Shown one piece after another: positions 14,436-39,955 of a DNA stretch of 62,811 bases. The stretch comes from Thermoplasmatales archaeon (lineage in GTDB: Archaea > Thermoplasmatota > E2 > DHVEG-1). Under the pieces are notes generated by a model. That model saw only the letters and a program-made list of their open reading frames with translations, had not been told where the DNA came from and made no database searches. Location: positions 1 to 62,811 of the forward strand of contig CP070712.1 in assembly GCA_020350365.1 (NCBI GenBank), read 5' to 3'. Each line of letters opens with the position of its first letter. Within the stretch, counting starts at the first letter, position 1. A program made the translations under genes and the position numbers.

Positions 14436-14711
14436 AATTTCTCCCTGCCCAGGTATAATATTAATTGTATTAATAGATTCCTAGATTTGAATAAATAAAG
14501 GGTTTTTTCTAGTAATAAATTAATAAAATCATTAAAATTGAGAGACAACTCAATTGCGAGGTATATATATTCTCCATCTGACTTTGAAGATTAATAATAG
14601 ATGCATTTAAAAGATATCATTACAACTCTTTATTTTAACACAACTTGATCATTGTAACATTTAAATATCCAATAAAGAATTATAATAAATATTTTGAGGG
14701 AGGAAAACCAT

Positions 14712-24959: not shown

Positions 24960-25377
24960 ATTTCATAGGAGTATAATTTTTTAATGTTTTAAATCCAAAA
25001 TTTTCATAGAAGCCATATTGACCAGGTTCTGCTATGAGACCTATCCAAGTCAATTTTTTTGACAAACAATAATCCAAAAGTGTTTCTACAAGCATTCGAC
25101 CTATACCACTATCACGATATTTTGGCAAAACTACTAAATCTTGAATATACCCATCTGATACCCTATCAGAGATGACACGTCCCATACCTATTGCTTTATT
25201 TGAGGTTTTATCAACTGCTATTGCAAAAGCAAAACTACCTCTTATTAAATATTTCAGTTTCGATGGATCATAATTATCCTTCCACCAACCTGCAGCTTTA
25301 TAAAGGGTTACAATCTCATTTTCAGGCCATGAATCTACAATTTTTATTTGGATTTTTTCTACTTTCTTTTTTTCCAT
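24943..25377 (-). CDS. GNAT family N-acetyltransferase
   Basis: VLPKYRDSGIGRMLVETLL acetyl-CoA binding motif. Confidence 0.8.
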   Translation of the reverse strand: MEKKKVEKIQIKIVDSWPENEIVTLYKAAGWWKDNYDPSKLKYLIRGSFAFAIAVDKTSNKAIGMGRVISDRVSDGYIQDLVVLPKYRDSGIGRMLVETLLDYCLSKKLTWIGLIAEPGQYGFYENFGFKTLKNYTPMKYEKDD

Positions 25378-25491: not shown

Positions 25492-25938
25492 ATGAATAAA
25501 TCAATCAATATTTTTAAATTAATGGTTAAAAATCACCGTAAAATCGAAGATTTATTGAATGATCTTGAAGAAAAAAACAATCAAGATTTCAATACAATGT
25601 ATAATGCATTTAGTAAATTTGAATGGGAACTTGAAAAACATATTTTTACTGAAGAAAAAGCAATATTTACCTCTTACAATCCAGATGACAAAACTGAAGG
25701 ATATAAGATGCTACCTGAACTTACTAAACAGCATAACTTTATCCTTAACAAATTAAATAATTGGAGGAAAGACATTAGAAACAAAAGTAATATATCTGAT
25801 TTTTATAGTTTCAAGGTTTATTTGACCAGACATAAAACCTTTGAAGAAGAAAAAGTCTATCCAATACTTGATCAATCAATAACTGATGATGAAAAAATAA
25901 AAATTGCTGTAAAAATTAATGAAATCGTACAAAAATAG
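25492..25938 (+). CDS. Hemerythrin-like (HHE cation-binding) domain protein
   Basis: H/E ligand pattern: NHRKIEDLL, ELEKHIFTEE, QHNFIL, RHKTFEEEKV. Confidence 0.65.
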   Translation: MNKSINIFKLMVKNHRKIEDLLNDLEEKNNQDFNTMYNAFSKFEWELEKHIFTEEKAIFTSYNPDDKTEGYKMLPELTKQHNFILNKLNNWRKDIRNKSNISDFYSFKVYLTRHKTFEEEKVYPILDQSITDDEKIKIAVKINEIVQK

Positions 25939-25947
25939 GTGAGATTT

Positions 25948-26133
25948 ATGATAGATACCTATAAATGTAAAGAATGTGGGAAAACAATTAAAATAATTGA
26001 TGAAGAAGTACCCGAATGTTGTGGTAAGGTTATGACAAAAGTTCCTCTGGATATTTGTACTCAACCAGCACATGCAGAACATGCAAGACCGATGGATGAT
26101 GAAAATGCATGTGATGATGGAAGAGCAGGATAG
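25948..26133 (+). CDS. Small desulforedoxin-like (CxxC...CC) metal-binding protein
   Basis: MIDTYKCKECGKTIKIIDEEVPECCGKVM resembles the Dx domain. AGGTGA SD. The track ORF starts at an upstream GTG. Confidence 0.5.
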   Translation: MIDTYKCKECGKTIKIIDEEVPECCGKVMTKVPLDICTQPAHAEHARPMDDENACDDGRAG

Positions 26134-26135
26134 CT

Positions 26136-26639
26136 TTATATAAATATTTCAAATCGTTCTTTTTTTGCTTTACAAATGGGGCAAACCTCAGGAGGAGAGT
26201 CTTTTCCACAAAGATAACCACATACCTTACATCTCCAAACAGGTTTTGATAATGAGATAATATTATTTTTTATTGATTTTTCTTTTATCTGTCTTTTTTC
26301 ATCTTTTTGATGTCTGCGTTCTGGAATTGAACCTAATTTTTTCTTCCCATTTAAAATATCTTTTGAAACATAAAGAGCACAATAACATGAACCATATTCA
26401 TTTAAATCATCATCACGATAATCACACGGACAAATAATGTCCAAGTCTCTGCTTTTTTCACCTGTTGCTAGCCTGCATGGACAAGCCAAATAACCATATC
26501 TTTTTTCATTTACTAAAAGCCCCTTAATAAGATCCTTTGTCATATCAATATCTGAATTTAAATGATATCCAAATGATTCAGCTTCTGAATCTAATTTTTT
26601 ATATAGATTTTCAATTTCCTCTGATTTAACTTCACTCAT
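26136..26639 (-). CDS. Ferredoxin:thioredoxin-reductase catalytic-subunit-like protein fused to a rubredoxin domain (FDR type)
   Basis: ACPCR...ICPCDY...CYCALY (FTR-B CPC/CPC/CxC pattern), plus a C-terminal WRCKVCGY...CPICKA. Confidence 0.75.
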   Translation of the reverse strand: MSEVKSEEIENLYKKLDSEAESFGYHLNSDIDMTKDLIKGLLVNEKRYGYLACPCRLATGEKSRDLDIICPCDYRDDDLNEYGSCYCALYVSKDILNGKKKLGSIPERRHQKDEKRQIKEKSIKNNIISLSKPVWRCKVCGYLCGKDSPPEVCPICKAKKERFEIFI

Positions 26640-26917
26640 TTACCAAGAACCTCTCGAATCTCATCTTCATTATAACCAACTATGCATTCCTTGTCATTAA
26701 TTACAATTGTAGGATAGGAATTTCGTGGATTAAATTTCCTTACTTCTTTAATTACTTTATCTTTTTCGCTATCATCAACTAAATCCACATAAATATATGA
26801 ATATTCTACACCAAGTTTACTTAAGAACTCTTTTGTTTTTCTACACCAGCCACATGTACTGAGAGCATATAGTAAAATCTTGCCTCTATTCTCACCATCA
26901 ACATGTTCAATTTTCAT
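26636..26917 (-). CDS. Glutaredoxin-like protein (CGWC active site)
   Basis: 93 aa. STCGWCRKTKEFL. Thioredoxin fold. 4-nt overlap with the downstream gene. Confidence 0.75.
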   Translation of the reverse strand: MKIEHVDGENRGKILLYALSTCGWCRKTKEFLSKLGVEYSYIYVDLVDDSEKDKVIKEVRKFNPRNSYPTIVINDKECIVGYNEDEIREVLGK

Positions 26918-26923
26918 AAATAA

Positions 26924-27487
26924 TCACTTCCTTTCAATATATCTATTTATATATACAAATTCATCTATAGGAATTCTTTCCGGTCGTTTTTTTTCTGCTT
27001 CAGCCTGCTTTTCTGAGAGAACTGGATCGATTTTATCAGAATGTTTTCCAACAATTACTAACGCAATAACATCTATATCTTCTGGAATACCGAGAACTTC
27101 CCGAGTTTTTTTAGGGCTATAACCTGCTATAGGATGAGCAACTAGGCCTAACTCAGTTGCTCTTAGAATAATTGCTTCAGTAGCCATTCCAATATCAAAT
27201 CTATAGTATACTCGATCTCTTATTACACAATCATCTTCCTTTTTACCAAGAACAACGATAATCATTGATGCTTTTTTAGCCCATTCATTACCTGAGGATA
27301 AAGCATCATGCATCTTTATTAACATGTCTTGATCATGAACAAATACATATCTCCAGGGCTGATTATTAAAACATGATGCAGTAATTTGAATGCATTCTGC
27401 AAAATCATTGATTAGGTCATCTGATATCTTAATTGGAATTAAAGAACGAAACGCTCTTCTTTTTCTGATTGCTTCCTTCACATCCAT
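26924..27487 (-). CDS. Nitroreductase family protein
   Basis: IRKRRAFRS N-terminal motif and nitroreductase fold length. Confidence 0.7.
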   Translation of the reverse strand: MDVKEAIRKRRAFRSLIPIKISDDLINDFAECIQITASCFNNQPWRYVFVHDQDMLIKMHDALSSGNEWAKKASMIIVVLGKKEDDCVIRDRVYYRFDIGMATEAIILRATELGLVAHPIAGYSPKKTREVLGIPEDIDVIALVIVGKHSDKIDPVLSEKQAEAEKKRPERIPIDEFVYINRYIERK

Positions 27488-27501
27488 TTTTTTAAACTCC
27501 G

Positions 27502-27906
27502 CTAAGCGTATCCAGAAATACTAGAATCCACCCAAGTTGTTTTTTCAGCACATTGCGAACCATGTTCAAGTGTAATCTCAATCGTTTTCTTTATAATCGT
27601 GGGATAAATTGCTCCAACAAGTTCATTTATAGGTTTACCCTTACAGAAAAATTTGAACGTAGGTGTCCCCATAACACCATATCTTGCTGCAATGGTTTGA
27701 CTTATTGATATATCAACTTCTGCAAAGATAATCTTATCTTTATATTCTTTAGCATAATCCTCAAAATATGGCCTCATCTGTCTACAATAAGGGCAAGTTG
27801 GACTTGAAAACATTACAACTACGGGGTTTTTTCCTTCTTCTACTATCTTTTCCCAAGTTTTATCATTTAACTCGATAATAATATCAGAACTCATTAAATC
27901 CTCCAC
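27502..27906 (-). CDS. trx: Thioredoxin
   Basis: SPTCPYCRQM (CxxC), GVMGTPTFKFF. Confidence 0.8.
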   Translation of the reverse strand: MEDLMSSDIIIELNDKTWEKIVEEGKNPVVVMFSSPTCPYCRQMRPYFEDYAKEYKDKIIFAEVDISISQTIAARYGVMGTPTFKFFCKGKPINELVGAIYPTIIKKTIEITLEHGSQCAEKTTWVDSSISGYA

Positions 27907-27952
27907 CTCTCAAAGTATTAATAAATAATCTAGATTTATTATTTACTATTAA

Positions 27953-28678
27953 CTACAAATTACCAACTACACTCATATAGATAACACTTTCACTTTTACC
28001 ATCAACACCAATAATCTCATTTATTTCATCATCATATAATGCTGCGATTTGACAATTTCCCAAACCTAAACCAGTTGAAACGAGTGCAAAATTTTCAGCA
28101 ATATGACCTGCATCCAGATAGATATATCTGTAGGCTCGCTCACCGTATTTCCATTTTGATCTATTAAAAATAGCAGTCCAGATAAAAACAGCTGCAGCTT
28201 TATTACACATATCTTGATCTAAAGCAGCTCTTGAGATATCAACTCCAAAATCACCAATTTTCAATTCTTCTAAAAGATTATCTTTTATTGAATAATGATA
28301 AATACCTTTTGGAATATCTTTTACTCTATTAATTACTAAATATGTTTCTATTGGATAAAGAGCTCCAGCAGATGGAGCTGTTCTAAATTCAAATCCAAGT
28401 TCTTTTCTTTGGATTCCAGTTGAAGCCCACAATAAGCTGGAAAGTTGTTGTTTAGTTATTGGTTTTTCAGAAAAATTACGAATACTTCTACGATTTTTCA
28501 ATACTTTATCTAAGGATATCTTTGATAAATCTTTAGGCAAATCAAGACTTATTTTCTTACTGTTTGGGTAACTCTTGTACTGTTCAGGAGGATTTCTTAA
28601 GTTGAATCCCCCAAAATCCATTAAGTAACGAGAATATTTTGTTTCCTTTTGAAATCTGTCCCCTATATCGCTGTTCAT
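27953..28678 (-). CDS. SagB-type dehydrogenase / nitroreductase-superfamily protein
   Basis: FQKETKYSR N-terminus, NRRSIRNF, PSAGALYP. Confidence 0.7.
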   Translation of the reverse strand: MNSDIGDRFQKETKYSRYLMDFGGFNLRNPPEQYKSYPNSKKISLDLPKDLSKISLDKVLKNRRSIRNFSEKPITKQQLSSLLWASTGIQRKELGFEFRTAPSAGALYPIETYLVINRVKDIPKGIYHYSIKDNLLEELKIGDFGVDISRAALDQDMCNKAAAVFIWTAIFNRSKWKYGERAYRYIYLDAGHIAENFALVSTGLGLGNCQIAALYDDEINEIIGVDGKSESVIYMSVVGNL

Positions 28679-29142
28679 AATTCTCTAAGAAAAGTTATGA
28701 TTTCATTAATATCTGGTAATTTCCCGATTTCATATATTCGAACAAATTCAATTTCTTGATCTTCATTTACAATCACATTTGCTCTCTCAGAAAAACCTTG
28801 CTTTTCTCTGAATAAATGATACAATTCTGATACCTTTCCATGAGGCCAAAAATCAGAAAGTAGTCTTGTATTTTTCAAACCAAGACTATCTGCCCAAGCT
28901 TTTTTTGATGGAATTGAATCAACATTTATTCCGATAGCAACAGTATTTAACTCTTCAAAATCATTAAAATGATTTTCTAAAGATTTCATCTGTTCAGAAC
29001 AAACTCCTGTCCAAGCAAGAGGATGAAATGATAGTAGAACTCTTTTACCTTTGAAATCAGATAGTTTGAATTCTTTTTCATTATGGTCAAATAAAGAAAA
29101 ATCAGGTGCTTTTTCTCCAGCTTTAAAGCATTTTTTCTGCAT
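28675..29142 (-). CDS. Peroxiredoxin (AhpC/TSA-Bcp type)
   Basis: FHPLAWTGVCSEQ peroxidatic Cys motif. Confidence 0.8.
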   Translation of the reverse strand: MQKKCFKAGEKAPDFSLFDHNEKEFKLSDFKGKRVLLSFHPLAWTGVCSEQMKSLENHFNDFEELNTVAIGINVDSIPSKKAWADSLGLKNTRLLSDFWPHGKVSELYHLFREKQGFSERANVIVNEDQEIEFVRIYEIGKLPDINEIITFLREL

Positions 29143-29154
29143 TTAACTTACCTC

Positions 29155-30003
29155 TTATACCCATTCTTCCTTCAAAATGTCTCCTTTAATTCCAACAACT
29201 ACTGATTTTATTGGAATTTTCCTTGAGGCTTTTTCAGCTGCTCTTTTTGCAAGGTGTAATAAACCGCTACAACAAGGTACTTCCATTGTCATTACTGTTA
29301 GTGTATTTATTTTAGCACCATCAATTAATTTAATCAATTTATCCTGATAGATTTCTTGATTTGTATCTAATTTTGGACATGCAATAGAAATGCTTCTCCC
29401 TTTTAGATAATCTTTGTGAAAATCACCAATGGAATAACCAACACAATCAGCAACTAGCAACACATCTTTGCCTTGAAAATATGGAGCAAATGGTGGTACA
29501 AGATGAAGTTGAATTGGCCATTGCTTAAGATGTGAGCTTCTGGATCCACTTTCATCAGTAGTTTCTTTCTTTTCATCTGAGAACTCCTTCATTTGTGATC
29601 CAGGACATGATTGGTAAGGCTCATGAGAACAAACACTTTCTTCATTATCTATTTTAATTTCAATACCTTGTTCTTCTAGATATTCCTGGGCTTGTCTAAG
29701 ATATTCAGTTTCTCCATGATCTTTCAAATGTTTAAGATGAGCAATAATTGTGTTTTTACCAGCTTTTACAATGTTTACCATGGTCTTTTTTTCATCGTAG
29801 GGTTCTGCTTCTCTTTCTTCTGTTGAAATTGCTCCTTCGGGACAGTGTCCAAGACATGCACCAAGTCCATCACAAAAAATATCACTAATAAGTCTTGCCT
29901 TTCCATCTATGATTTGAATAGCACCTTCAGGACAATTTGGAATACACAGCCCACAACCAGTACACTTTTCCTCATCAATTTTTACAATCTTTCTTTTTGA
30001 CAT
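29155..30003 (-). CDS. 4Fe-4S dicluster domain protein (possible Hcp redox partner)
   Basis: CTGCGLCIPNCP and CDGLGACLGHCP. ATG at 30003 lies 10 nt after the hcp stop. Confidence 0.6.
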   Translation of the reverse strand: MSKRKIVKIDEEKCTGCGLCIPNCPEGAIQIIDGKARLISDIFCDGLGACLGHCPEGAISTEEREAEPYDEKKTMVNIVKAGKNTIIAHLKHLKDHGETEYLRQAQEYLEEQGIEIKIDNEESVCSHEPYQSCPGSQMKEFSDEKKETTDESGSRSSHLKQWPIQLHLVPPFAPYFQGKDVLLVADCVGYSIGDFHKDYLKGRSISIACPKLDTNQEIYQDKLIKLIDGAKINTLTVMTMEVPCCSGLLHLAKRAAEKASRKIPIKSVVVGIKGDILKEEWV

Positions 30004-30013
30004 ATAAATCAGT

Positions 30014-31627
30014 CTATGCAACTATCTTCAATGTTGGAAGGTCATTTTCAACATTTGTATTTGGTTGTATATTGAATTTTTCAACCAAAACTTTTAACAC
30101 ATTTGGTGAAACAAAGGCAGGTAATGTTGGTCCAAGCATTATGTTTTTTACACCAAGTGATAAAAGTGAAAGAAGTACAAGAACTGCTTTTTGTTCATAC
30201 CAAGCGATATTGAAAGATATCGGCAGTTCATTTAATTCTACACCAAAAACTTCTGCAAGTTTCTGGGCAATTACCACAAGTGAATAAGAATCATTGCATT
30301 GACCAGCGTCAATTACTCTAGGAATACCATCTATATCTCCAAGTCCAAGTTTATTATATCTATACTTTGCACATCCAGCAGTAAGAATTGCTGTATCATT
30401 TGAGAGGGCATTTGCAAAATCAGTATAATATTGTCTATCTGGTCTTCGGCCATCACAACCAGCCATAACAACAAATCGTTTTATTTTACCAGATTTTACA
30501 GCATCAACTATTTTATCAGCAACACTTAATGTTGCGTTATGGGCAAAACCAATTGTTATTTCACCATCATCGATTTTTTCAGGTGGAGAACTTCTTTTTG
30601 CATGTTCAATTATTTCTGAAAAATCCTTTGGGTCTCCTTCTGGTATATGTCTCAATCCTTCAAATCCAACAATACCTGTTGTGTATACCCTTTCCTTATA
30701 GGAATCTCTTGGAGGTACAAGACAGTTCGTTGTCATTAGAATTGGGCCATTGAATTTTTCAAATTCTTCTTTTTGTTTCCACCAGGAGCTACCGTAGTTT
30801 CCAACCAAGTGAGAATATTTTTTAAATGCAGGGTAAGCATTTGCAGGTAGCATCTCACCGTGTGTATAAACATCCACACCAGTTCCCTCAGTTTGTTTTA
30901 GAAGTTGTTCTAAATCCTTTAAATCATGACCACTTATTAGAATCCCTGGATTATTTCTCACTCCAATGTTTACATTTGTTATTTCAGGATTACCATAAGT
31001 ACTAGTGTTTGCTTTATCAAGCAATGCTATAGTTTTTACACCCATCTCACCACATTTTAAAACCAAATTAACTAGTTCGTCTACAGGTAAATCGTTTGTA
31101 GTACTAGCAAGACCCTCTTGCATGAACTTAAAGATTTCATCATCCTTATTACCAATAACATATGCATGATGAGAATAAGCAGCTATTCCCTTTATCCCAT
31201 AGGTAAGTAGCCAACGAAGTGATCTAATATCCTCATTTTCAGTACTCAATATTCCAATTTTTTCAGATTTTTCAAAAATCTCATCTTCACTATCAGACTG
31301 CCATTTTACTGAATCATGTTGGGAGTCTACTGAGACATTCTGTTTAATATTTTCCCGTAATTTTATTGCTTCCTGAATTTTATCTAAAAAATATTTTTTA
31401 TCAAAATTTGCATTAGTAATTGTTGCAAATAAATTGTCCATTATGAATTTGTCTGTTTCCTCAGTGTTTTTACCTTGTTTTCTTGCTTCAATATTACATA
31501 TTGATATCCCTTTCATTAAGTAGATAAGAAGATCTTGTAAATTTGCTACTTCCCCTTTTTTACCACATGCACCATTTATTGTGCAGCCTTTATTGTTTAT
31601 TGTTTCTTCACATTGATAACAAAACAT
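30014..31627 (-). CDS. hcp: Hybrid cluster protein (hydroxylamine reductase)
   Basis: [24 protein letters not shown]-terminal cluster motif; 537 aa. Confidence 0.9.
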
Positions 31628-31657
31628 TTTATTTCACCTTTTTAGCCTAAAAAGATT

Positions 31658-32035
31658 TTAAGATTTCCACAAACCATGAACATTACAATATTCACGAGCG
31701 GAAATTTCAGTTGTGGTTATTGAAAATTTTGCCTGTGGCTTATCTCCTGGTTTTAAAAACTTTCTATAAGATACACCATCTGCAATTATCTGTATCCATT
31801 CAATGTAGTGTTTCTCTTCCATTGGATGATCCTGATTTTGACCAACTTTTACAAGAAAACCTTCATCTGTTTTTTCAATATAAGGAACGTGTTTTTCAAT
31901 AGATGAGTCTTCAGTTTTTTCATCCATTAATTCCATTGGTTCCCCACAACATACCAATTCACCAACACCAGCATGTAACATTTCTACAATATTTCCACAT
32001 ATATTACATTTATATATCTCTCTTACTTTTGTCAT
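31658..32035 (-). CDS. dfx: Desulfoferrodoxin (2Fe superoxide reductase)
   Basis: [27 protein letters not shown] Dx domain plus the SOR domain ([19 protein letters not shown]). Start at 32035 after GGGGG. Confidence 0.85.
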
Positions 32036-32057
32036 AACCTTACTACCCCCAAAATTT

Positions 32058-32411
32058 TTATTTCTTTTTTTTCTTCTTATAATCATCAATAGCTGCATGC
32101 AGTGCATCGGCAGCTAAATTAGAGCAATGCATCTTTTGAGGTGGCAGGCCATCGAGTTCATTTGCCACATCATTTCTAGTAATTTTTAATGCTTCATCAA
32201 CTGTTTTTCCAATTGCAAGTTCTGTAACCATAGAGCTTGTTGCAATAGCCGAGCCACAACCAAATGTTTTGAATTTTATATCTTTAATAACATCATTTTC
32301 AACTTTTATGTACATCTCCATTAAATCTCCACAAACAGGATTCCCGACTTTTCCATAACCATCAGGATTTTCAATTACACCTACATTTCTTGGATTTGTA
32401 AAATGATCCAT
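32058..32411 (-). CDS. iscU: Fe-S cluster scaffold IscU/NifU-like
   Basis: [28 protein letters not shown]. Confidence 0.9.
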
Positions 32412-32444
32412 TACCTTTTTACTATATATCGGAATTTTATCACC

Positions 32445-33599
32445 TCATTTAATTAATGGTGAAAGTTTTCTTAATCTACTTACAGTTTCACCAACTGCTT
32501 TTACAATTTTTTGTACTTGTTTCATATTATTTGAACGACCTAGGGTTATCACCATAGATCCATGTGCTTCCTCATGCTTAAGACCAATTGCCAATAGTAC
32601 ATGTGATGGTTCAAGCGTTTTTGATGAACAAGCTGAACCTGTTGCGATTTGAATCCCATACATATCCATATTTAAAAGAATGCTTTCTCCTTCAATGTGA
32701 TTAAATCTAAAACTTGCATGATGAGGTAAGCGCTTTTTTGGATGGCCAGTTAAATAAGTTTCATCAATTTTTGTAATTTCAGATATCAATTTGTCTCTGA
32801 TTTTTTGTAATCGCTTACTTTCAATATTCATTTCTTTCTTTGCAATTTTTGCCGCCTCACCCATACCAGTTATTGCAAATATGTTTTCAGTTCCTGATCT
32901 CAGTCCTCTTTCTTGTCCTCCACCTGGCATTACGGATTGGATTTTTAATCCAGGTTTTACATATAATACTCCAGCGCCTCTAGGCCCGTATAAGTCGTTA
33001 GATGATAATGTTAAAAGGTCAATACCATCTTTTTGTACATCTATAGGCACTCTTCCTGCAGCAGCTGTTGCATCTACATGTAAATATTTTCCTTTTTCAT
33101 GAACAATTTCAGAAATTTCTTTTATAGGTTCAATTGTTCCAATCTCATTATTTGCATACATTACAGATGTAAGAATTGTATTTTTTGATAATATTTTTTT
33201 AAGTTTGGATAAATCAATAATACCATAATTATCTACAGGTATTGTATTAAAAATCCATCCATTTTTTTGAAGGTCTTTCATTGGATTAATAACTGAAATA
33301 TGCTCAATAGCACTTGAAAGGACCTCTTTACCTTCTTTTATATTTCTAAATGCCAGTCCTCTTATCGCAATATTATTTGACTCTGTAGCACTACCTGTAA
33401 ATATTATTGTTTTTTCATTTTCTGCATTTATTAAATCAACAATTTTGGTCCTTGCTTTTTCAATTACTTCTTTAGATTCTTGTCCAAATTCGTATAAAGA
33501 TGACGGATTACCTACATCAAGTAAATATGGCTTAGCATATTCAAATACCCTCGAATCAATGGGCATTGCGGATGCATGATCTAAGTATATTCTTTCCAT
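32445..33599 (-). CDS. iscS: Cysteine desulfurase (NifS/IscS)
   Basis: Class V aminotransferase. SSNDLYGPRG PLP-Lys-region equivalent and the catalytic loop SGSACSS. Confidence 0.85.
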   Translation of the reverse strand: MERIYLDHASAMPIDSRVFEYAKPYLLDVGNPSSLYEFGQESKEVIEKARTKIVDLINAENEKTIIFTGSATESNNIAIRGLAFRNIKEGKEVLSSAIEHISVINPMKDLQKNGWIFNTIPVDNYGIIDLSKLKKILSKNTILTSVMYANNEIGTIEPIKEISEIVHEKGKYLHVDATAAAGRVPIDVQKDGIDLLTLSSNDLYGPRGAGVLYVKPGLKIQSVMPGGGQERGLRSGTENIFAITGMGEAAKIAKKEMNIESKRLQKIRDKLISEITKIDETYLTGHPKKRLPHHASFRFNHIEGESILLNMDMYGIQIATGSACSSKTLEPSHVLLAIGLKHEEAHGSMVITLGRSNNMKQVQKIVKAVGETVSRLRKLSPLIK

Positions 33600-33608
33600 T
33601 TTATCTCT

Positions 33609-33971
33609 CTAAAACCACATGGTTGCTCCAGCATCTAGAGCAAGGTCGTTAAGTGTTCCTGCTCCAACAATTTTAACACCTGGAATAAGTTCAACTTTTT
33701 CCCATCCAAGCATCTGTTTAGAAGCCTCACAAACATAGATTTCTATACCCATATCAAGAGTTTTTTTGATCATCTCAGCAACACTTGGAAAACTACCAAG
33801 TTTTATTTTTTCAGCCTCACCAGGTTTTAAAATCTTGAGTCCCGTCCCAAGATAATATACCATTGGTTTTAAATCCATCATTTTTGCTGTTTGAGCTAAA
33901 ACCAATGGCGAATATTGTTTATCAGGTGAGTCAGTGGTTTGCACATATAATATGGAATTTTCATCTTTCAT
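33609..33971 (-). CDS. DsrE/DsrF-like sulfur-relay family protein
   Basis: 120 aa. DsrE-fold pattern with a conserved Cys in IYVCEAS. Confidence 0.6.
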   Translation of the reverse strand: MKDENSILYVQTTDSPDKQYSPLVLAQTAKMMDLKPMVYYLGTGLKILKPGEAEKIKLGSFPSVAEMIKKTLDMGIEIYVCEASKQMLGWEKVELIPGVKIVGAGTLNDLALDAGATMWF

Positions 33972-33982
33972 ATTTTTTCACC

Positions 33983-34168
33983 TTATTTCATTTTTTTAAT
34001 AAAGAAAGTTAAAATTGTACCTTCTTTTTCAAATTTTAATATCTCATGACCAGTTCGTTTTGCCCAACGTTTAATATCTTCTTCTGCGGCAGGGTCATCT
34101 GCTTCAACTTTTAAGACTTGTCCAATCTCTATCTTATCTATCTCTTCCTTGGTCATAGCAATAGGCAT
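33983..34168 (-). CDS. tusA: TusA-like sulfurtransferase. The annotated ORF lacks the catalytic Cys-Pro motif, which lies just upstream in frame with no start codon.
   Basis: The in-frame upstream extension reads AELDCVGYFCPMPI (TusA CPxP). The body reads VLKVEADDPAAEEDIKRWAKRTGHEI. See finding. Confidence 0.65.
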   Translation of the reverse strand: MPIAMTKEEIDKIEIGQVLKVEADDPAAEEDIKRWAKRTGHEILKFEKEGTILTFFIKKMK

Positions 34169-34221
34169 TGGGCAAAAGTAACCAACACAATCAAGTTCAG
34201 CATCGGATTTTATTTCATCGC

Positions 34222-34740
34222 TCAGAAATTTTGCCCCCCTAAATAATCAAATTCAAACCAATAACCGGTTGAATTGATGTGACTGAACTCTTTTTCAAGT
34301 AACGAATAATGATTTTTTTCTTGTTCGATTATTTCATTGATAACATTTTTTAACTCTTGGTTTTCAAGATTTTCCAAAATATCACTGTAATAATCAATTG
34401 CTTCCTTTTCACTATCCATTGCCATTCTTAAGGCATCAATCTCAGTACTATCTGAATCCATACCAGGAGCATCTTTAAGGTCGGTTGGAAATATTGGTAT
34501 ATTTGCATATTTTTTACTAGAATTTACTAAATCATTCCATTCTGACTGACCAACTCTGTCTTCAAACATCTTTTGAAAAACGTCAAGATGTCTTTGCTCA
34601 TCAGCTGCAAGACTCTCAAAAATGGTTCGCCCCATATCACTTCCTGTTTGGCCAGCAGCTTTTGTATAAAATGCATAGCCATCTTTTTCCATTTGAATAG
34701 CAGTTAGAATTGCATCCTTTACATTTTCAATATTTGTCAA
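34222..34740 (-). CDS. Ferritin-like diiron protein (rubrerythrin family, no rubredoxin domain)
   Basis: ExxH pairs: EKDGYAFY, ADEQRHL, EKEAIDYY, EQEKNHY. Confidence 0.7.
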   Translation of the reverse strand: MTNIENVKDAILTAIQMEKDGYAFYTKAAGQTGSDMGRTIFESLAADEQRHLDVFQKMFEDRVGQSEWNDLVNSSKKYANIPIFPTDLKDAPGMDSDSTEIDALRMAMDSEKEAIDYYSDILENLENQELKNVINEIIEQEKNHYSLLEKEFSHINSTGYWFEFDYLGGQNF

Positions 34741-34759
34741 ATTGTTTCCCCCTTAATTT

Positions 34760-35335
34760 TTAATAAGATTCTACCCAAATCTCATAGTAGCTTTGTGGAT
34801 GTTGACAAGCAGGACAGACATCAGGTGCTTCTTTTCCGTCATGTACATATCCACAGTTTCGGCATTTCCATTTTTTTATATTATCTTTTTTGAATACTTG
34901 TTTTTTCTTAATATTTTCAAGTAATTTTCTAAATCTTCTTTCATGATATGCTTCTACTTCTGCAATCTTTTTGAAGCTATGTGCAACCATTGGAAATCCC
35001 TCTTTTTCAGCCGTTTCTGTAAAATCTGGATAAAGTGAGCCCCATTCCATCTTTTCACCTTCAGCAGCTGCAAGAAGATTTTGAGATGTATCTCCAATAA
35101 TACCAGCGGGATATTCAGCAGTTATTTCGACATCTCCTCCTTGCAGATGTTTAAAGAAAACCTCAGCATGTTCTTTTTCATTTTCAGCTGTTTCTTGAAA
35201 TATTGCTGCGATTTGTTCATAGCCTTCTTTTTTTGCTTTTGATGCAAAAAAGACATATCGGTTTCTAGCTTGTGACTCTCCTGCAAATGCTGCAAGAAGA
35301 TTTTTTTCAGTTTGTGTTCCTTTTATATTTTTCAT
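34760..35335 (-). CDS. rbr: Rubrerythrin
   Basis: Diiron ferritin-like domain plus a C-terminal WKCRNCGY...CPACQHP rubredoxin-like site. Confidence 0.9.
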   Translation of the reverse strand: MKNIKGTQTEKNLLAAFAGESQARNRYVFFASKAKKEGYEQIAAIFQETAENEKEHAEVFFKHLQGGDVEITAEYPAGIIGDTSQNLLAAAEGEKMEWGSLYPDFTETAEKEGFPMVAHSFKKIAEVEAYHERRFRKLLENIKKKQVFKKDNIKKWKCRNCGYVHDGKEAPDVCPACQHPQSYYEIWVESY

Positions 35336-35358
35336 TACTTATCCTCCTTAATTTTAAT

Positions 35359-35850
35359 CTATGGCCCAACGTGTACCATGGGCCAGTAAATGTCACCTTC
35401 CTCAAAACGTTCCATGCTTTCTTTCTCAGTTTCAAGAAGCTTATAATGACCTTTTTCCATATCTGAGAAGTATAACAAGGTGTTGTTTAATTTAGTCCCT
35501 TCCTCAAACCGACCTGCTAGTAACCTATAGAAATCACTTGCAGATTGTTCTGCATTCATTGCTTCTTTTAATAAAATGCTCAAAGGTAGGTCTTCGGATA
35601 TATTTACTTCAGGAAGTGGAACAGGTGAATCCCTTGGTAAAACTATTTTATTTTCAGGGTAATGATTCTTATAAATATCCTCGACAAATATTCTGTGTTT
35701 TTCTTCTTCATTTGCCAGAAATTTAAGTTTATCCTCTAATAGTCCGTTTTTAGTTTTTTTAGACATTTTTAAATAAAGTTTATTACTCTCAATTTCACTC
35801 TTTATTGCTGCTAGTAATAATTCTTCCAGGTCAAAACCACTCAAATCCAT
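35359..35850 (-). CDS. Ferritin-like/rubrerythrin-family diiron protein
   Basis: SEIESNKLY, EEEKHRIF, AEQSASDFY, MEKGHYKLL. Confidence 0.6.
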   Translation of the reverse strand: MDLSGFDLEELLLAAIKSEIESNKLYLKMSKKTKNGLLEDKLKFLANEEEKHRIFVEDIYKNHYPENKIVLPRDSPVPLPEVNISEDLPLSILLKEAMNAEQSASDFYRLLAGRFEEGTKLNNTLLYFSDMEKGHYKLLETEKESMERFEEGDIYWPMVHVGP

Positions 35851-35859
35851 TTTTTCACC

Positions 35860-36396
35860 CTATTTAAGATAATCAGCATGCAAATCCAGATGGTCTTTTT
35901 CTATCTCAACAAGTGCACCAAAGAACTCCTTTAGTCTTGGTTCTGTAGCTTCATCTCTAAACTTTGAATAGGCTTTTATTGCACGGCCTTCCCGTTCCCA
36001 ACCTTCTTTTGAATTTGCTTTTGAATCCTTATTACATGCTTGTTTCATTAAGTCAGGACTTGATATCTTCAAGAATTTTGATATTGCTGATGCATGTTCT
36101 TTTTCAACTTTCATAAGAGCCTTAAATTTAGCTAAACTGTAATCATCACCTGCTTTGTCAGCTATATTTTTTGCACAATCATAGAATGCTGCATTATCTA
36201 ACTCTAGTTGTAATGCTGCTTCAAGATTTTTTTTAGAGATTTCACTTAATGTTACATTAAATTCATCTGGATTCCAATCTTTTGCTTCGACAAAGTATTT
36301 CTGATTTGCACCACAAAATGGACACTGCATTGGAGCCTCCGAACCTATATATGGATCACCACAAATTCTACACCTAAAAACTTTTATCTTCGTCAT
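35860..36396 (-). CDS. Reverse rubrerythrin-like protein (N-terminal rubredoxin-like site plus ferritin-like domain)
   Basis: FRCRICGD...CPFCGA at the N-terminus. ExxH motifs: VEKEHASAI, IEKDHLDLH. Confidence 0.7.
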   Translation of the reverse strand: MTKIKVFRCRICGDPYIGSEAPMQCPFCGANQKYFVEAKDWNPDEFNVTLSEISKKNLEAALQLELDNAAFYDCAKNIADKAGDDYSLAKFKALMKVEKEHASAISKFLKISSPDLMKQACNKDSKANSKEGWEREGRAIKAYSKFRDEATEPRLKEFFGALVEIEKDHLDLHADYLK

Positions 36397-36424
36397 AACA
36401 CTAACCTTCTTTTCAAATATCTCA

Positions 36425-36973
36425 CTATTTAACTGGTATATTTCTACCTCTACCAGTTGTAGGTGTTTTCTTTTTTACCAATATTTCTAATATACCATTA
36501 TTTAACGTTGCATCTGCTTTATCTGGATTTACTTCTTCTGGAAATGCCATTGTTCTGCATATTGTTGAATAACTACGTTCTCGCCTTACCCAACCTTCAT
36601 CTTTTTCATCTGTTTCAATTTTTATTTCTCCACAAATACTAATATTATTTGTTGTAATATTTACTTCAACATCTTTTTTATTAACACCGGGCATTTCAGC
36701 TTTTATTTTGTATTCTTTTCCAGTATCTATCATATCAATAGCAGTAATTTTTTTATCAGTGTCAAACCATTGATCTACTAATTTTTCAGCTGGCGTAAGA
36801 CCACTCCATCTTCTTCGCCAAATAGGAACCCAAGGATCTTCCCAAAACCATCTATCCGTTCTATCCATTAAATCCCATGGATTCCAAACAGTAGGAGTTG
36901 TCATCCTTTCAGGTGGTGTAATCTTACCTTTTTTTGTTTTAATATTTATCTTCTTTTCTTTCTTTTTCACCAT
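36425..36973 (-). CDS. Small heat shock protein (Hsp20/alpha-crystallin)
   Basis: Alpha-crystallin domain: YKIKAEMPGVNKKDVEVNI, LNNGILEILV. Confidence 0.85.
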   Translation of the reverse strand: MVKKKEKKINIKTKKGKITPPERMTTPTVWNPWDLMDRTDRWFWEDPWVPIWRRRWSGLTPAEKLVDQWFDTDKKITAIDMIDTGKEYKIKAEMPGVNKKDVEVNITTNNISICGEIKIETDEKDEGWVRRERSYSTICRTMAFPEEVNPDKADATLNNGILEILVKKKTPTTGRGRNIPVK

Positions 36974-37015
36974 AATTTATCTAACTCCTTTTTGTAAAAT
37001 TCTTACTTTTTTAAT

Positions 37016-37171
37016 TTATTTAATTCTCTTCATTGGTTCGCCACAACAATATGGTATAGACTTTGGTTCCTCATCAAACTCTATTATGCCACAACTGCAT
37101 TCATCCATTGAGCATTGGCATTCATATTGTACTGGCTTATTGGATTCTTTACAACCACAACTTTTACACAT
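37016..37171 (-). CDS. Cys-rich small metal-binding protein, 51 aa (not in the ORF track)
   Basis: Manual translation: MCKSCGCKESNKPVQYECQCSMDECSCGIIEFDEEPKSIPYCCGEPMKRIK. 9 Cys. GGAGGT SD 7 nt upstream. The CCGEPM tail matches the Dx motif in dfx. Confidence 0.6.
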   Translation of the reverse strand: MCKSCGCKESNKPVQYECQCSMDECSCGIIEFDEEPKSIPYCCGEPMKRIK

Positions 37172-37192
37172 TTTTTTACCTCCATTTTTTTC

Positions 37193-38377
37193 TTATTTTT
37201 TGGTTTTTATTAAATTCTTACCAATTTTTTTAGCATTATTCAAATCATCTTCATTAGGAATGTAATTAATATTAATCGATTCTTCAGGTAGTTCCCAATG
37301 AAGCTCCTTTAATATTTTTTCAATTTCACCTACCGCCTGACCTCCCCAACCATAGGAACCAAATACAAATCCAATGCGATTCCTTGGTCTAAGACCTTTA
37401 AGATAAGTTAGAAATCCTCCCATTGAGGGTAGCATTGTGTTATTGATTGTTGGTGATCCAAGAAGAATATATTTTGATGATATTACATCTGTAATTATAT
37501 CTGATATATCTGTGCTTTTTAAATTTCTAATAATTATTGGGATTCCTGTCTCTTCAATTCCTTCAGCAATAGCAAACGCTATTTTTTCTGTTGATCCCCA
37601 CATCGAATCATAAACAATTAAAGCTTTATTCTCGGTTTCGTAATTCGCCCATTTTGTATATTCTTTTAATATATCTGGAATTAAAGAGCGCCAAACTATT
37701 CCATGGCTTGGAGCTATCATATCTATATCAAGACCACTTACTGCATCCAATGCCTTTTTTACTTGATCTCCATAGGGCATAACGATATTTGCATAATATT
37801 TAGTTGCTTCTTCCTTTAAAATCCCCCATTCAATCTCATCGTCAAACCTCTCTATTGTAGCTATATGTTGACCAAATGCATCATTTGGAAGTAATAGTTT
37901 ATCACTAGGAATATATGTGACCATTGAGTCTGGCCAATGAACCATTGGTATATGTACAAAATGAAGAGTTCTTTTTCCAATATTTAGAGTATCACCAGAT
38001 TTTACAACCTTAAAATTTAAATCTTTTTTATAATGTAAACGCAATCCCTTTTCTCCGCGTGTTGATGTAATAACAGTTGCATTTGGGCAATGTTCAAGCA
38101 TCTTTAAAATTGAACCGGAGTGGTCCATCTCAACATGATTTGAAACGATATAGTCAATATTTAATGGATCAACAATTTCCTTAATTCTAGCAAGCATCTC
38201 ATCAAATAGATAATGTTTGACCGTATCAACTAGAGTAATTTTCTTGTCAATTATTAAATAAGCATTGTAAGAAGTTCCTCTTTTTGTGGAATATCCATGA
38301 AAATTTCTAAGATTCCAATCAATTCCACCAACCCAATAAATATCAGGTTTTATCTGAATTTTTTTCAGTATTATCAC
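37193..38377 (-). CDS. fprA: Flavodiiron protein (FprA/ROO-type O2/NO reductase)
   Basis: Metallo-beta-lactamase-like diiron domain ([10 protein letters not shown]) plus a C-terminal flavodoxin domain ([10 protein letters not shown]). GTG start overlapping the upstream stop. Confidence 0.85.
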
Positions 38378-39066
38378 TCCTTACTAAATGATGTCTTTGG
38401 TGCGCCACAAACAGGACAGACCCAATCATTTGGAATATCTTCAAACTTGGTTCCAGGTTGAACTCCATTGTCTGGATCTCCTTTCTCAGGGTCATATACA
38501 TAACCACATACATCACAAACATATTTGTCCATTTTTTTCTCCTCCTTAATTTTTTTATCAACTGCACGGAAATAGGTTGGTGCAGTTTTTGGTGAATAAC
38601 CACCTTTTACCTCATGATAATATTCATATGTCATTGGATTTTCTTCGCTTAGGATATCTGCATCTAGAACATTAGCGCAAAAAATTGTATGAGTACCTAT
38701 ATCAATATTATCAATTAAACTACATTCAATAAAACCCAATGAGTTATCCAGAATAATTGGTGCTTTTGTTTTTCCTATTTTGTAATTTATGCCATTAAAT
38801 TTATCAATATCTCTTCCAGATTTAAAACCAAATGTTCCTATGAATTTCATCGGTGTATTTTCAGGTAGAATAGATATTGTAAAAACCTTACTTTTGAGAA
38901 TGAAGTCATGTGTTAGATTCTGTTTATTTATTGAAACTGCAACTGTAGGTGGTTCTGATGTAACTTGAAATATTGCGTTTGCAATTTGACCATTTTTTTT
39001 ATTGCTATTAATTGATGAAACAACATAAAGTCCATATGAGATTTTATGAAGTGTCTTGCGATTCAT
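38374..39066 (-). CDS. hrb: High-molecular-weight rubredoxin (flavin reductase-like domain fused to rubredoxin)
   Basis: Flavin-reductase fold at the N-terminus. C-terminal [43 protein letters not shown]. Confidence 0.8.
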
Positions 39067-39070
39067 TTTT

Positions 39071-39481
39071 TTACCTTCTCTTTTTTAAACAGGTTTTACA
39101 AATTCCTTTTAAATATCCATGGATTTCTTCAATTTGATGTCCATATTTTTTCATTTTTTCAATATTTGAACATTTTAATTCCACATCAACAACACATCCA
39201 CAATTTTTACAGTAAAAATGATGATGCATACCATGATTTAAATCATATCTCAATTCATTTCCAGAAATTGTAAGTGATTGTATAATTCTATGTTTGTTTA
39301 ATGTCTCTAGTGCATTATATACAGTTGTTTTTGATAACGATGGATGTTTCTTTTTTAGGTATGAATAAATCTCATCAGCTGTTGGATGTGTACAATTCTT
39401 ATCCAAATACTCCAATACAATTAGCCTTTGTGGAGTAATTTTTATATGGTTATTTTTTAATACTTTTACATATTTATCCAA
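39071..39481 (-). CDS. perR: Fur family regulator, PerR-like
   Basis: [27 protein letters not shown]. Sits at the upstream end of the ROS-defence cluster. Confidence 0.75.
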
Positions 39482-39512
39482 TCATTTCACCCATCATTGT
39501 GTAATAATTACT

Positions 39513-39533
39513 AAATTGTAATCATTACAATTT
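39513..39533. promoter_or_regulatory. Candidate Fur/PerR box (perfect 10-1-10 palindrome)
   Basis: AAATTGTAAT-C-ATTACAATTT, 32 nt upstream of the Fur-family start codon. The TTGTAATCATTACAA core resembles 7-1-7 Fur/PerR boxes. Confidence 0.55.
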
Positions 39534-39591
39534 AACACGTAATACAAAATGGTTATTTAAAGTTTTCGATTATTAATTATGATGAAAACCA

Positions 39592-39801
39592 CTAACAAGA
39601 ACTATGCTCAACTGCTTCATTAGGACATGAACTTACACATGCACAGCATTCAATACATTCCCCAATGTTCTTACATACTGCTTTGCCATCTTTTAATTCA
39701 AATATCTCAACTGGACAAGCAGTAATACATTCGCCAGCACCAGTACATTTGTCCAGATCAATGATAATTTTAATATCTCCTTCCTCATATTCTTTTTTCA
39801 T
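39592..39801 (-). CDS. 2x[4Fe-4S] ferredoxin
   Basis: 69 aa from the ATG at 39801. CTGAGECITACP and CIECCACVSSCP. Confidence 0.75.
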   Translation of the reverse strand: MKKEYEEGDIKIIIDLDKCTGAGECITACPVEIFELKDGKAVCKNIGECIECCACVSSCPNEAVEHSSC

Positions 39802-39955
39802 TGTAATACAACCCCCATTTTGACAAATTACCATAAATAAAAAGAAGTATTTTAGGGTTACGAATTTAAGTAAAAATAAATATTTTTTAGGCAATTATTT
39901 ATATTATAAAAAAAATGGTTAAAGTTTAAACACTCATCATATATTTCTATTTTAG

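Follow-up and report, generated by a model that had tools for sequence, protein, structure and literature searches.

Anaerobes typically keep their genes against reactive oxygen species (ROS) in units of three to five genes. In Moorella thermoacetica, rubrerythrin-FprA-Hrb and Rbo-rubredoxin are encoded by five genes in two divergent operons with no known regulator, and the Desulfovibrio sor-rub-roo operon and the MsvR-controlled fpaA operon of Methanothermobacter are further small units. In Clostridioides difficile, the rbr-perR-sor-CD0828 operon is PerR-controlled (PMC11980386). Among archaea, the experimentally studied PerR of Saccharolobus islandicus (SisPerR) controls dps, nirD, mntH and VIT1, not ROS-scavenging enzymes, and PerR homologues are scarce in Euryarchaeota outside Methanobacteria and Methanomicrobia (PMC11724291). 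Here we describe a much longer arrangement on contig CP070712.1 of a Thermoplasmatales archaeon, in a stretch of 62,811 nucleotides (nt) analyzed as a whole and referred to as the window: a block of 23 genes for ROS defence and Fe-S cluster assembly that runs on the minus strand from 39801 to 26136, i.e., over ~14 kb, with the gene for a PerR-like regulator in second place. From gene content, operator and relatives together, we think it probable that this oxidative-stress/Fe-S block is conserved and functionally coherent, with an autoregulated PerR at its head.

A preliminary description of the window, made from its letters, had proposed 23 consecutive minus-strand genes with a hemerythrin gene and a Dx-like gene on the opposite strand at the end of the block. 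All 23 were recovered at their proposed positions in a listing of the open reading frames (ORFs), in which no credible plus-strand gene lies between them, and all of the proposed family names were reproduced by Pfam, NCBIfam and PDB searches. From upstream to downstream, with lengths in amino acids (aa) and with refined starts, the genes are as follows.

39592-39801, minus: ferredoxin, 69 aa, at the head of the block, with its own conserved upstream region (Pfam Fer4_10 and others)
39071-39481, minus: PerR-like Fur-family regulator, 136 aa, TTG start (Pfam FUR PF01475, 3e-26)
38374-39066, minus: Hrb, a flavin reductase-rubredoxin fusion (Pfam Flavin_Reduct and Rubredoxin)
37193-38377, minus: FprA, a flavodiiron O2/NO reductase (Pfam ODP and Flavodoxin_1)
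37016-37171, minus: Cys51, a Cys-rich, desulforedoxin-like protein of 51 aa (no Pfam or NCBIfam match)
36425-36973, minus: Hsp20 small heat-shock protein, a variable module (Pfam HSP20, 1e-19)
35860-36396, minus: reverse rubrerythrin (Pfam RUBY_RBDX at the N-terminal residues 7-35, Rubrerythrin at 56-172)
35359-35850, minus: rubrerythrin-family diiron protein without a rubredoxin domain (Pfam Rubrerythrin, 1.6e-14)
34760-35335, minus: classical rubrerythrin with a C-terminal rubredoxin domain (Pfam Rubrerythrin, 2.5e-30, and RUBY_RBDX)
34222-34740, minus: rubrerythrin/ferritin-like protein with no rubredoxin domain, its stop overlapping the TusA start (Pfam Rubrerythrin, 1e-16)
33983-34225, minus: TusA sulfur carrier, ~80 aa, proposed CTG start at 34225 (Pfam TusA)
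33609-33971, minus: DsrE-family sulfur-transfer protein (Pfam DsrE and DrsE_2)
32445-33599, minus: IscS/NifS-like protein of the Archaeoglobus fulgidus IscS2 type (Pfam Aminotran_5; PDB 4EB5/4EB7/4HVK, 'cysteine desulfurase 2', E=3e-130)
32058-32411, minus: IscU scaffold (Pfam NifU_N, 1.5e-49)
31658-32035, minus: desulfoferrodoxin (Dfx), a 2Fe superoxide reductase, 125 aa (Pfam Desulfoferrod_N and Desulfoferrodox)
30014-31627, minus: Hcp hybrid-cluster protein (Pfam Prismane, 1e-178)
29155-30003, minus: 2x[4Fe-4S] protein with an AF_0155-type C-terminal domain (Pfam Fer4 families)
28675-29142, minus: AhpC/TSA (BCP-like) peroxiredoxin (Pfam AhpC-TSA, 5e-31)
27953-28678, minus: SagB-type nitroreductase-fold dehydrogenase, a variable module (Pfam Nitroreductase; NCBIfam TIGR03605 at 160 bits, cut-off 78)
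27502-27906, minus: thioredoxin, CPYC motif (Pfam Thioredoxin, 2e-23)
26924-27487, minus: nitroreductase-family flavoprotein (Pfam Nitroreductase)
26636-26917, minus: glutaredoxin-like protein (Pfam Glutaredoxin)
26136-26639, minus: fusion of the catalytic subunit of ferredoxin:thioredoxin reductase (FTR) with a rubredoxin domain (Pfam FeThRed_B and RUBY_RBDX)
25939-26133, plus: Dx64, a desulforedoxin-like protein of 64 aa, convergent (weak Pfam Desulfoferrod_N, 0.0085; motif YKCxxCG...CCGxxM)
25492-25938, plus: hemerythrin (HHE) domain protein, convergent (Pfam Hemerythrin, 2e-14)

Read 5' to 3', the gaps between successive genes are 110, 4, -4, 21, 42, 28, 9, 23, 19, 53 and 11 nt in the first half of the block and 9, 33, 22, 30, 10, 12, -4, 46, 14, 6 and -4 nt in the second, the 110-nt gap being that between ferredoxin and perR. 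The expectation that all other gaps are at most 46 nt fails if TusA is started at its ATG, which leaves 53 nt; with the conserved CTG start described below, this gap becomes -4. The ferredoxin start had been put at 39894, the end of the longest ORF (39592-39894), but the ATG at 39801, preceded by a GGGGG ribosome-binding site, is most likely. In the same way, the position of the ribosome-binding site makes 32035 the most likely start of Dfx. Four 4-nt stop/start overlaps occur within the block, one of them across the rubrerythrin/TusA module boundary, and ribosome-binding sites precede nearly every internal gene.

The best PDB match of the regulator is Bacillus subtilis PerR (2FE3, E=3e-23), and the best Fur reaches E=1e-16. 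In the alignment with 2FE3 (HPTADEIY/HPTADDIY, RYD/RFD, HHHFYC/DHYHAIC and CGCVVD/CGKIVD), the regulatory ligands H37, D85, H91, H93 and D104 (B. subtilis numbering) are all kept, including the Asp at the D104 position, which we take to be diagnostic of PerR. The CKNC and CKTC motifs align with C96/C99 and C136/C139 of the structural Zn site, so that the nine metal ligands of B. subtilis PerR, i.e., the five regulatory ligands and the four Zn cysteines, are all kept. The list of regulatory-site ligands is that of a published account (PMC11724291). Together with the conserved operator, the best structural match and the retained ligands strengthen the assignment of the regulator as PerR-like.

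The upstream region of perR holds two elements.

39554-39568, minus: element resembling a B recognition element and TATA box (BRE/TATA), CGAAAACTTTAAATA, of the perR promoter, read from the sequence
39499-39533, no strand assigned: PerR-type operator, comprising the palindrome AAATTGTAATGATTACAATTT (39513-39533) with a 7-1-7 core at 39516-39530, and a weaker box at 39499-39513

The palindrome at 39513-39533, already flagged in the preliminary description, is real and a perfect 10-1-10 repeat. The operator, with its 7-1-7 core TTGTAAT-G-ATTACAA (39530-39516), lies 18 nt upstream of the perR TTG start at 39481. In archaea the TATA box is usually centred near -26/-27 from the transcription start; from this spacing, perR transcription would start near 39531, so that the core would span roughly +2 to +16 and the weaker box roughly +19 to +33. 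An operator lying over the start site is the classic position of archaeal repressors that block polymerase recruitment. The window holds a single exact copy of CGAAAACTTTAAATA, and no further copies of the perR BRE/TATA beyond chance. The additional operator copies that the preliminary description had suggested looking for in the island were not there: no copy at 0-1 mismatch was found anywhere else in the window. Matches at 2 mismatches, at 27804 (trx) and, outside the island, at 9610, 11499 and 55951, lie within coding sequence and were taken as chance.

The operator is conserved. In a five-locus alignment, the stretch from BRE/TATA to palindrome stands out as a conserved island in an otherwise variable spacer. 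The exact motif TTRTAATNATTAYAA is found at the perR promoter in L002, L004, L081, L082, L083, L084 and L087 (we number the compared loci with an L) and is absent from ~78 other loci; among the 82 loci scanned, it is confined to clade loci with perR. The central N differs between loci (G, A, C or T), and the operator of L086 (3632-3646) carries a symmetric double substitution, TTGTAAC-A-GTTACAA, which preserves the palindrome, as expected for a dimer site. Counting this variant, eight relatives keep the operator at their perR promoters. In L083 the exact motif occurs a second time, inside an unrelated transporter gene.

To compare the gene order, window proteins were searched by tblastn against fetched loci, and precomputed Pfam tables of further contigs were read alongside; relatives were gathered through homologues of Cys51 and NifS, and a metagenome scan for PerR gave two loci. 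Scattering of these genes in relatives would have spoken against a coherent block; instead the linkage is kept at 50-99% protein identity, and no fewer than 11 related loci conserve the block, with the following differences.

L082 and L081: same order, with Hsp20 and, upstream, the amidohydrolase-CBS(-ProRS) flank; L082 runs out at FeS288 and L081 at NifS
L084: whole block, near-identical to L002, with an extra CMD/AhpD-like gene ahead of hcp; without Hsp20 and SagB
L002, a closed 1.79-Mb metagenome-assembled genome (MAG): full order without Hsp20 and SagB; two unrelated genes inserted after the Fe-S partner
L086: without hcp, its partner and prx; with a PAS-domain gene
L088: Fe-S partner present without hcp
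L004, L005, L001 and L003: shorter or reshuffled; with ferritin, EncFtn, 1-Cys Prx, DJ-1, ExoIII and NifU-C
L087: nitroreductase-Grx-FTR-hemerythrin module ~7 kb away
L083: SufC-SufB/D in the exact slot of TusA-DsrE-IscS-IscU (13383-15054)

The proteins of L082 are 75-99% identical to those of the window, and in L007, from a more distant member of the Thermoplasmatota (50% identity), TusA-DsrE-IscS stands alone amid unrelated genes. As a control, the flanks (up to 10 kb) of 73 outgroup IscS-IscU loci hold almost none of the block genes. Within the clade, ferredoxin lies directly upstream of perR in L002, L081, L082, L084, L086 and L087 and is absent from L004, L083 and L005; Hsp20 is present in L081, L082 and L086 and absent from L002, L084 and L004; and the SagB-type gene is present in L086 and L088 and absent from L002 and L084. 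At the far end, a gene of 57-64 aa occupies the Dx64 position in L002, L083, L084, L086 and L088, and the position of hemerythrin is kept in L002, L083, L086 and L088, while in L087 it travels with the FTR module. From this distribution, the block is a feature of the clade that grew by accretion around an older sulfur/Fe-S core, and the sites of gain and loss delimit the following exchangeable modules.

Upstream: ferredoxin; perR-hrb-fprA-cys51; hsp20 or other variable genes
Middle: the four rubrerythrin-family genes with TusA-DsrE-IscS-IscU and dfx; then hcp with its partner
Distal: prx(-sagB)-trx-ntr-grx-ftr, with the convergent hemerythrin-Dx64 pair

Two further observations concern the relatives. 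A PAS-domain protein of 134 aa, which may act as a second sensor (of redox state or O2), is encoded in three of them (L083 11412-11816, L086 7332-7736 and L087 7308-7712), amid the rubrerythrin-family genes and immediately upstream of Rbr2; the window lacks it. In L005 (JAFGGQ010000106.1), a Zodletone MAG labelled 'bacterium', a TusA-DsrE-lysine-less-IscS-IscU core at 68-84% identity is surrounded by PerR, Hrb-FprA, Dfx and Rbr, and its perR promoter lacks the operator motif; this MAG is probably a member of the same archaeal group.

The preliminary description had called the IscS-like gene NifS. The family holds (Aminotran_5, IscS2 type), but the lysine that binds pyridoxal phosphate (PLP) is missing: an Asp (SSND) replaces the Lys of the S-x-H-K motif, and the same Asp is seen in PDB 4EB5, while 4R5F, a variant chain of the A. 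fulgidus protein, has Lys at the PLP site (SSNK). The PLP lysine is absent from 11 of 11 clade sequences (the window, L001-L007, L081, L082 and L084), with Asp in 10 of these and Ala (SSNA) in L005, and is kept in 73 of 73 outgroup loci. The catalytic loop cysteine (GSAC[ST]S) is retained, reading GSACSS in window and clade. The window protein is thus probably not an active desulfurase. The A. fulgidus IscS2 reportedly bound no PLP and had no desulfurase activity, and its loop cysteine is said to have contributed to the cluster on IscU.

In all 11 loci with a lysine-less IscS, TusA-DsrE lies directly upstream of it, with DsrE always after TusA, as compared to none of the 73 lysine-containing outgroup loci. 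The IscS-like gene adjoins a single-domain IscU-like scaffold, with no chaperones or carrier, as in a minimal system. A TusA-DsrE relay feeding a lysine-less IscS-IscU scaffold is the specific hypothesis that this arrangement suggests, and our searches found no prior statement in the literature linking lysine-less IscS with TusA or DsrE. As for the 'Fe-S repair' ascribed to the block, an assembly scaffold is indeed encoded; repair itself is what we infer from it. That SufC-SufB/D stands in L083 in place of IscS-IscU and its neighbours speaks most strongly for Fe-S assembly being a function under selection in the block and not a passenger.

The start of TusA bears on how this module is joined to the genes before it. 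Starting at the ATG at 34168 would delete the active-site cysteine of the CPxP motif, and the frame upstream of this ATG reads ...ELDCVGYFCP-M and is conserved; relative to L002, its last ten codons show 6 synonymous and 0 non-synonymous differences. Nineteen codons upstream of the ATG stands a CTG in the window, L082, L002 and L084 and a TTG in L081, with a Shine-Dalgarno-like GGGGGG or GAGGTG 6-8 nt before it (GGGGGG at 8 nt in the window). In the window, L082 and L002, this CTG and the TGA stop of the rubrerythrin-like gene before it overlap (ttCTGA; 34222-34225 in the window). TusA is therefore likely to have a non-canonical CTG start and to be translationally coupled to the rubrerythrin-like gene. 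In L084, the GTG chosen by the gene caller for TusA is probably part of the ribosome-binding site.

Taken to its full extent, the arrangement would mean that, in archaea of the Thermoprofundales type, a bacterial-type PerR induces the ROS scavengers and, with them, a self-contained Fe-S assembly line for emergencies. In this line, a PLP-less IscS-IscU pair, unable to mobilise sulfur from cysteine, would be fed by a dedicated TusA-DsrE persulfide relay, TusA would be CTG-coupled, and the whole would be functionally interchangeable with SufCB. We consider this rather unlikely to hold in every part. If true, the sulfur donor that the 'minimal' archaeal MIS system lacks would be TusA-DsrE, and archaea would have a case of stress-inducible Fe-S biogenesis. 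The co-occurrence of lysine-less IscS with TusA-DsrE and the SufCB swap bear on the sulfur source of minimal archaeal Fe-S systems, an open question in a 2026 review (PMC13066941).

The remaining enzymes fit known types. The hrb stop overlaps the fprA start by 4 nt; the N-terminal domain of Hrb matches PDB 1I0R and its C-terminal domain matches rubredoxins, while the best PDB match of FprA is 1YCF ('Nitric oxide reductase' in its depositor's naming, E=1e-119), ahead of the F420H2 oxidases 2OHH and 6FRM. As encoded, Hrb-FprA matches the Moorella-type pair, i.e., the fusion beside a class-A flavodiiron protein. The FTR fusion aligns over its full length (E=1e-64) with 4TPU, which we take to be the ferredoxin:disulfide reductase of Methanosarcina acetivorans, and keeps the CPC...CPC...CYC motifs; its rubredoxin tail is lost in L002 and L083. 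A route from ferredoxin through FTR and the Trx/Grx-like proteins to peroxiredoxin is plausible from this gene set. The 2x[4Fe-4S] protein, on whose orthologues in L084 and L088 PF27217 is recorded, had been proposed as an Fe-S partner of Hcp. Its gene does adjoin hcp, but the tie is not strict, as L088 (3804-4652) has the gene without hcp; this AF_0155-domain protein may serve another enzyme of the block.

Cys51 has 27 clusters among 5.8 billion proteins, all of 30-60 aa (26 of the 27 at 49-60 aa), and no Pfam domain is on record for any of these clusters; by this search the family appears restricted to the clade. Eight cysteines and PYCCGxPMK are invariant, and the first cysteine pair is CxC, not CxxC. 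For an AF2 model (pLDDT 79.5), the six best PDB folds are desulforedoxin (1DXG) and Dfx N-domains, at probabilities of 0.6-0.97 and E=0.15-1.2, weak values for a tiny domain. Cys51 follows fprA in most loci with the hrb-fprA pair; in L087 an 82-aa EncFtn-like gene stands there instead, and in L005 there was no match.

From these elements we infer the following mechanism. The control module would consist of the ferredoxin gene followed by autoregulated perR. Under reducing conditions, a metal-loaded PerR dimer would sit on the 7-1-7 palindrome, from the transcription start, ~20 nt downstream of BRE/TATA, and would keep RNA polymerase from being recruited. Once peroxide had oxidised the His ligands, PerR would be released, and transcription would then run into hrb-fprA-cys51 and, by read-through, probably much further. 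Electrons may pass from NAD(P)H through Hrb to FprA, which would reduce O2 or nitric oxide (NO). H2O2 would be removed by the four rubrerythrin-family proteins and peroxiredoxin, superoxide by desulfoferrodoxin, and NO or hydroxylamine by Hcp with its Fe-S partner. A second chain, from ferredoxin through FTR-rubredoxin to the thioredoxin- and glutaredoxin-like proteins, would feed peroxiredoxin and repair thiols, while Hsp20 would hold damaged proteins. The minimal Fe-S scaffold, i.e., IscS lacking the PLP lysine with IscU, could rebuild the oxygen-labile clusters of the block's enzymes and of ferredoxin-based metabolism, TusA-DsrE being its likely sulfur feeders.

Control by PerR of at least perR-hrb-fprA-cys51 is likely. 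As the operator region is the sole one in the island, control of the distal genes would require read-through, on which the ~11.7 kb beyond cys51 would depend; the 4-nt overlaps, the internal ribosome-binding sites and the lack of obvious terminators favour it, and the module junctions speak against it. A single PerR-controlled transcript over all 14 kb appears doubtful to us. Scans for intrinsic terminators and sigma-70 promoters gave counts at or below the shuffled expectation, and the models, being bacterial, do not apply to an archaeal host. Several points weigh against a coherent block headed by PerR. With one operator region in 14 kb, the 13 kb beyond perR need a very long transcript or unrecognised internal promoters; the junctions where genes were gained or lost, after cys51, dfx and the Fe-S partner, look like unit boundaries; in L087, the nitroreductase-Grx-FTR-hemerythrin module lies ~7 kb off, with no operator box within 2 mismatches before it; the S. 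islandicus PerR controls metal homeostasis genes, not ROS scavengers (PMC11724291); and the two nitroreductases, Cys51, Dx64 and hemerythrin have no assigned reaction. The 46 nt between the SagB-type gene and trx are taken up by an AT-rich near-palindrome, AATAAATAATCTAGATTTATTATT (27920-27943), perhaps an operator, a weak hairpin or a trace left by the sagB insertion.

A rival reading takes the block as a mosaic of separately promoted operons, adjacent by history or weak selection, in which PerR controls only perR-hrb-fprA-cys51. The other units, one of rubrerythrins, Fe-S module and dfx, one of hcp and one of the thiol module, would answer to other, unseen regulators. The single operator region, insertions and deletions exactly at module junctions, the detached and box-less thiol module of L087, a run of five T after dfx, the palindrome in the gap before trx, and the PAS-domain gene within the block in L083, L086 and L087, which hints at a second sensor, are all in line with it. 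However, the gaps are very short, and of the four overlapping stop/start pairs one spans the boundary between the rubrerythrin and TusA modules; nothing else like the perR BRE/TATA was found, and the linkage persists over 50-99% protein identity. We regard such a mosaic as a serious possibility, while leaning away from it.

The coherent, PerR-headed block must also be set against readings that concern what the regulator senses and where the genes came from. The regulator belongs to the Fur family, its half-site TTGTAAT falls between the Fur, PerR and Zur boxes of B. subtilis, and nearly all products of the block are iron proteins; it might thus be a Fur/Zur-type metal sensor and the block primarily a unit of iron economy or Fe-S homeostasis, with which the ferritins and EncFtn-like genes in the relatives' versions, the ZIP transporter and ArsR/permease pair nearby, and the metal genes regulated by SisPerR would agree. 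Relative to this, the best solved homologue is PerR and not Fur (E=3e-23 as against 1e-16), all five regulatory ligands of PerR, the Asp at the D104 position among them, are retained, genes for iron uptake are lacking, and repressing iron-using detoxification enzymes when iron is plentiful would be physiologically senseless, which together make a metal sensor improbable. Less probable still is that the block came recently from a bacterium, whether clostridial or deltaproteobacterial, as an island that is carried passively. FprA and PerR have bacterial proteins as their closest solved relatives, the upstream synteny breakpoint falls exactly at the ferredoxin promoter, and non-crenarchaeal PerRs have been suggested to come from bacteria (PMC11724291); but the GC content differs little (0.323 against 0.314), there are no tRNA genes, integrase and transposase domains are lacking among the scanned ORFs, the promoter has archaeal BRE/TATA architecture, and IscS, the FTR fusion and the N-terminal domain of Hrb have archaeal closest structures. 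Many diverged clade members share the block, so any transfer would have been ancient and piecemeal; a recent island was rejected on composition and flanks.

The host itself was placed by its genes. In a scan of a genome collection, the nearest relatives of the NifS-like protein are Thermoplasmatota MAGs at 50-81% identity, with bacteria and methanogens at 40-47%; its orthologue KYK33986.1, from MAG SG8-52-3, is 89% identical, and ABCE1/RLI and an aRF1/Pelota-like factor are encoded in the window. SG8-52-3 is counted among the Thermoprofundales (MBG-D) MAGs by Zhou et al. (PMC6461988, Table 1). On this evidence we place the host as an archaeon of the Thermoprofundales (MBG-D) type, for which sigma-70 logic and intrinsic-terminator scans are not applicable; a clostridial origin, suggested by the low GC content, was rejected on the NifS relatives and the archaeal marker genes. 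The GC content of the window is ~31% (0.323 in the block and 0.314 in the rest), and the window held no tRNA genes, no Rfam element on a scan of its whole length, and no integrase or transposase domain among the ORFs scanned.

The genes that flank the block are metabolic. Outside it lie beta-oxidation enzymes, an electron-transfer flavoprotein (ETF) with a ferredoxin domain, and amino-acid catabolism, a content that fits the picture of Thermoprofundales as anaerobic heterotrophs. At 1-20210, upstream of the block in window coordinates, a dense fatty-acid/acyl-CoA beta-oxidation set comprises thiolases, enoyl-CoA hydratases, a 3-hydroxyacyl-CoA dehydrogenase fusion, two acyl-CoA dehydrogenases and the ETF alpha with its N-terminal ferredoxin domain; its products would rely on oxygen-sensitive ferredoxin/flavin chemistry guarded by the block. 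A ZIP transporter and an ArsR/permease pair lie near the block. Its downstream neighbours are at 22614-23252 (Ogg, 8-oxoguanine DNA glycosylase), 23685-24023 and 24045-25377, and genes for a GNAT protein, an LPG-synthase-C-domain protein, a ~110-aa unknown protein and Ogg keep synteny with the block in L086, L087 and L088; oxidative DNA-damage repair is thus near the block, though on separate strands or units.

Thermoprofundales are among the most frequent and abundant sediment archaea worldwide and are anaerobic degraders of protein and organic matter (PMC6461988, PMC9585477). For such uncultured anaerobes, the conserved block of ~23 genes offers a testable genetic basis for surviving oxygen pulses at redox interfaces and a marker set for metatranscriptomes. 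It also adds a second, contrasting archaeal PerR case, in which the regulator heads scavenging enzymes and not metal-homeostasis genes, with an operator placed as expected for archaeal repression at the transcription start. Our literature searches found no prior description of this cluster, and the ROS-enzyme terms looked for do not occur in the main text of either principal genome paper on the Thermoprofundales (PMC6461988, PMC9585477).

The locus can be set beside the closest systems already described. As in the rbr-perR-sor-CD0828 operon of C. difficile and other clostridial PerR regulons, an autoregulated PerR stands with rubrerythrin and superoxide reductase in a strict anaerobe (PMC11980386; PMC7482061), and the enzyme families (Rbr, revRbr, FDP and a Bcp-type peroxiredoxin) are the same. 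However, the C. difficile operon has four genes as against 23 here, other clostridial ROS genes are scattered and also under sigma-B and OseR, and the clostridial operons lack the Fe-S assembly, Hcp, FTR/Trx and Hsp20 genes present in the block; clostridial promoters are bacterial, whereas the perR promoter here has an archaeal BRE/TATA, and its operator lies over the predicted start of transcription. With Moorella, the block shares adjacent hrb-fprA genes (overlapping here), the same Hrb fusion, an FprA closest to 1YCF, and rubrerythrin and superoxide reductase nearby, but here hrb-fprA is one module in a 14-kb block, mostly with Cys51 behind it. SisPerR is likewise an archaeal Fur-family homologue of the peroxide sensor, autoregulated and repressive; in contrast to it, the PerR of the block heads scavenging genes, as in Firmicutes. 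The FTR-like protein with its C-terminal rubredoxin domain resembles 4TPU, and differs in that it closes a co-directional Prx-Trx-nitroreductase-Grx string in a block headed by a ferredoxin gene. With A. fulgidus IscS2-IscU, the Fe-S pair shares close similarity (E=3e-130), the Lys-to-Asp change at the PLP site, the loop cysteine and an adjacent IscU. The MIS minimal system has been described without extra components (review, PMC13066941), whereas here TusA-DsrE precedes the pair, a rubrerythrin-like gene appears translationally coupled to it, and the whole lies within a ROS-defence block. All components belong to known families, and the logic follows the well-known pattern of PerR-linked defence. 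The novelty lies in the scale, in a promoter and operator of archaeal architecture, in the embedded module of lysine-less IscS, TusA and DsrE, to which SufCB is an alternative, and in a clade-specific, desulforedoxin-like partner of FprA.

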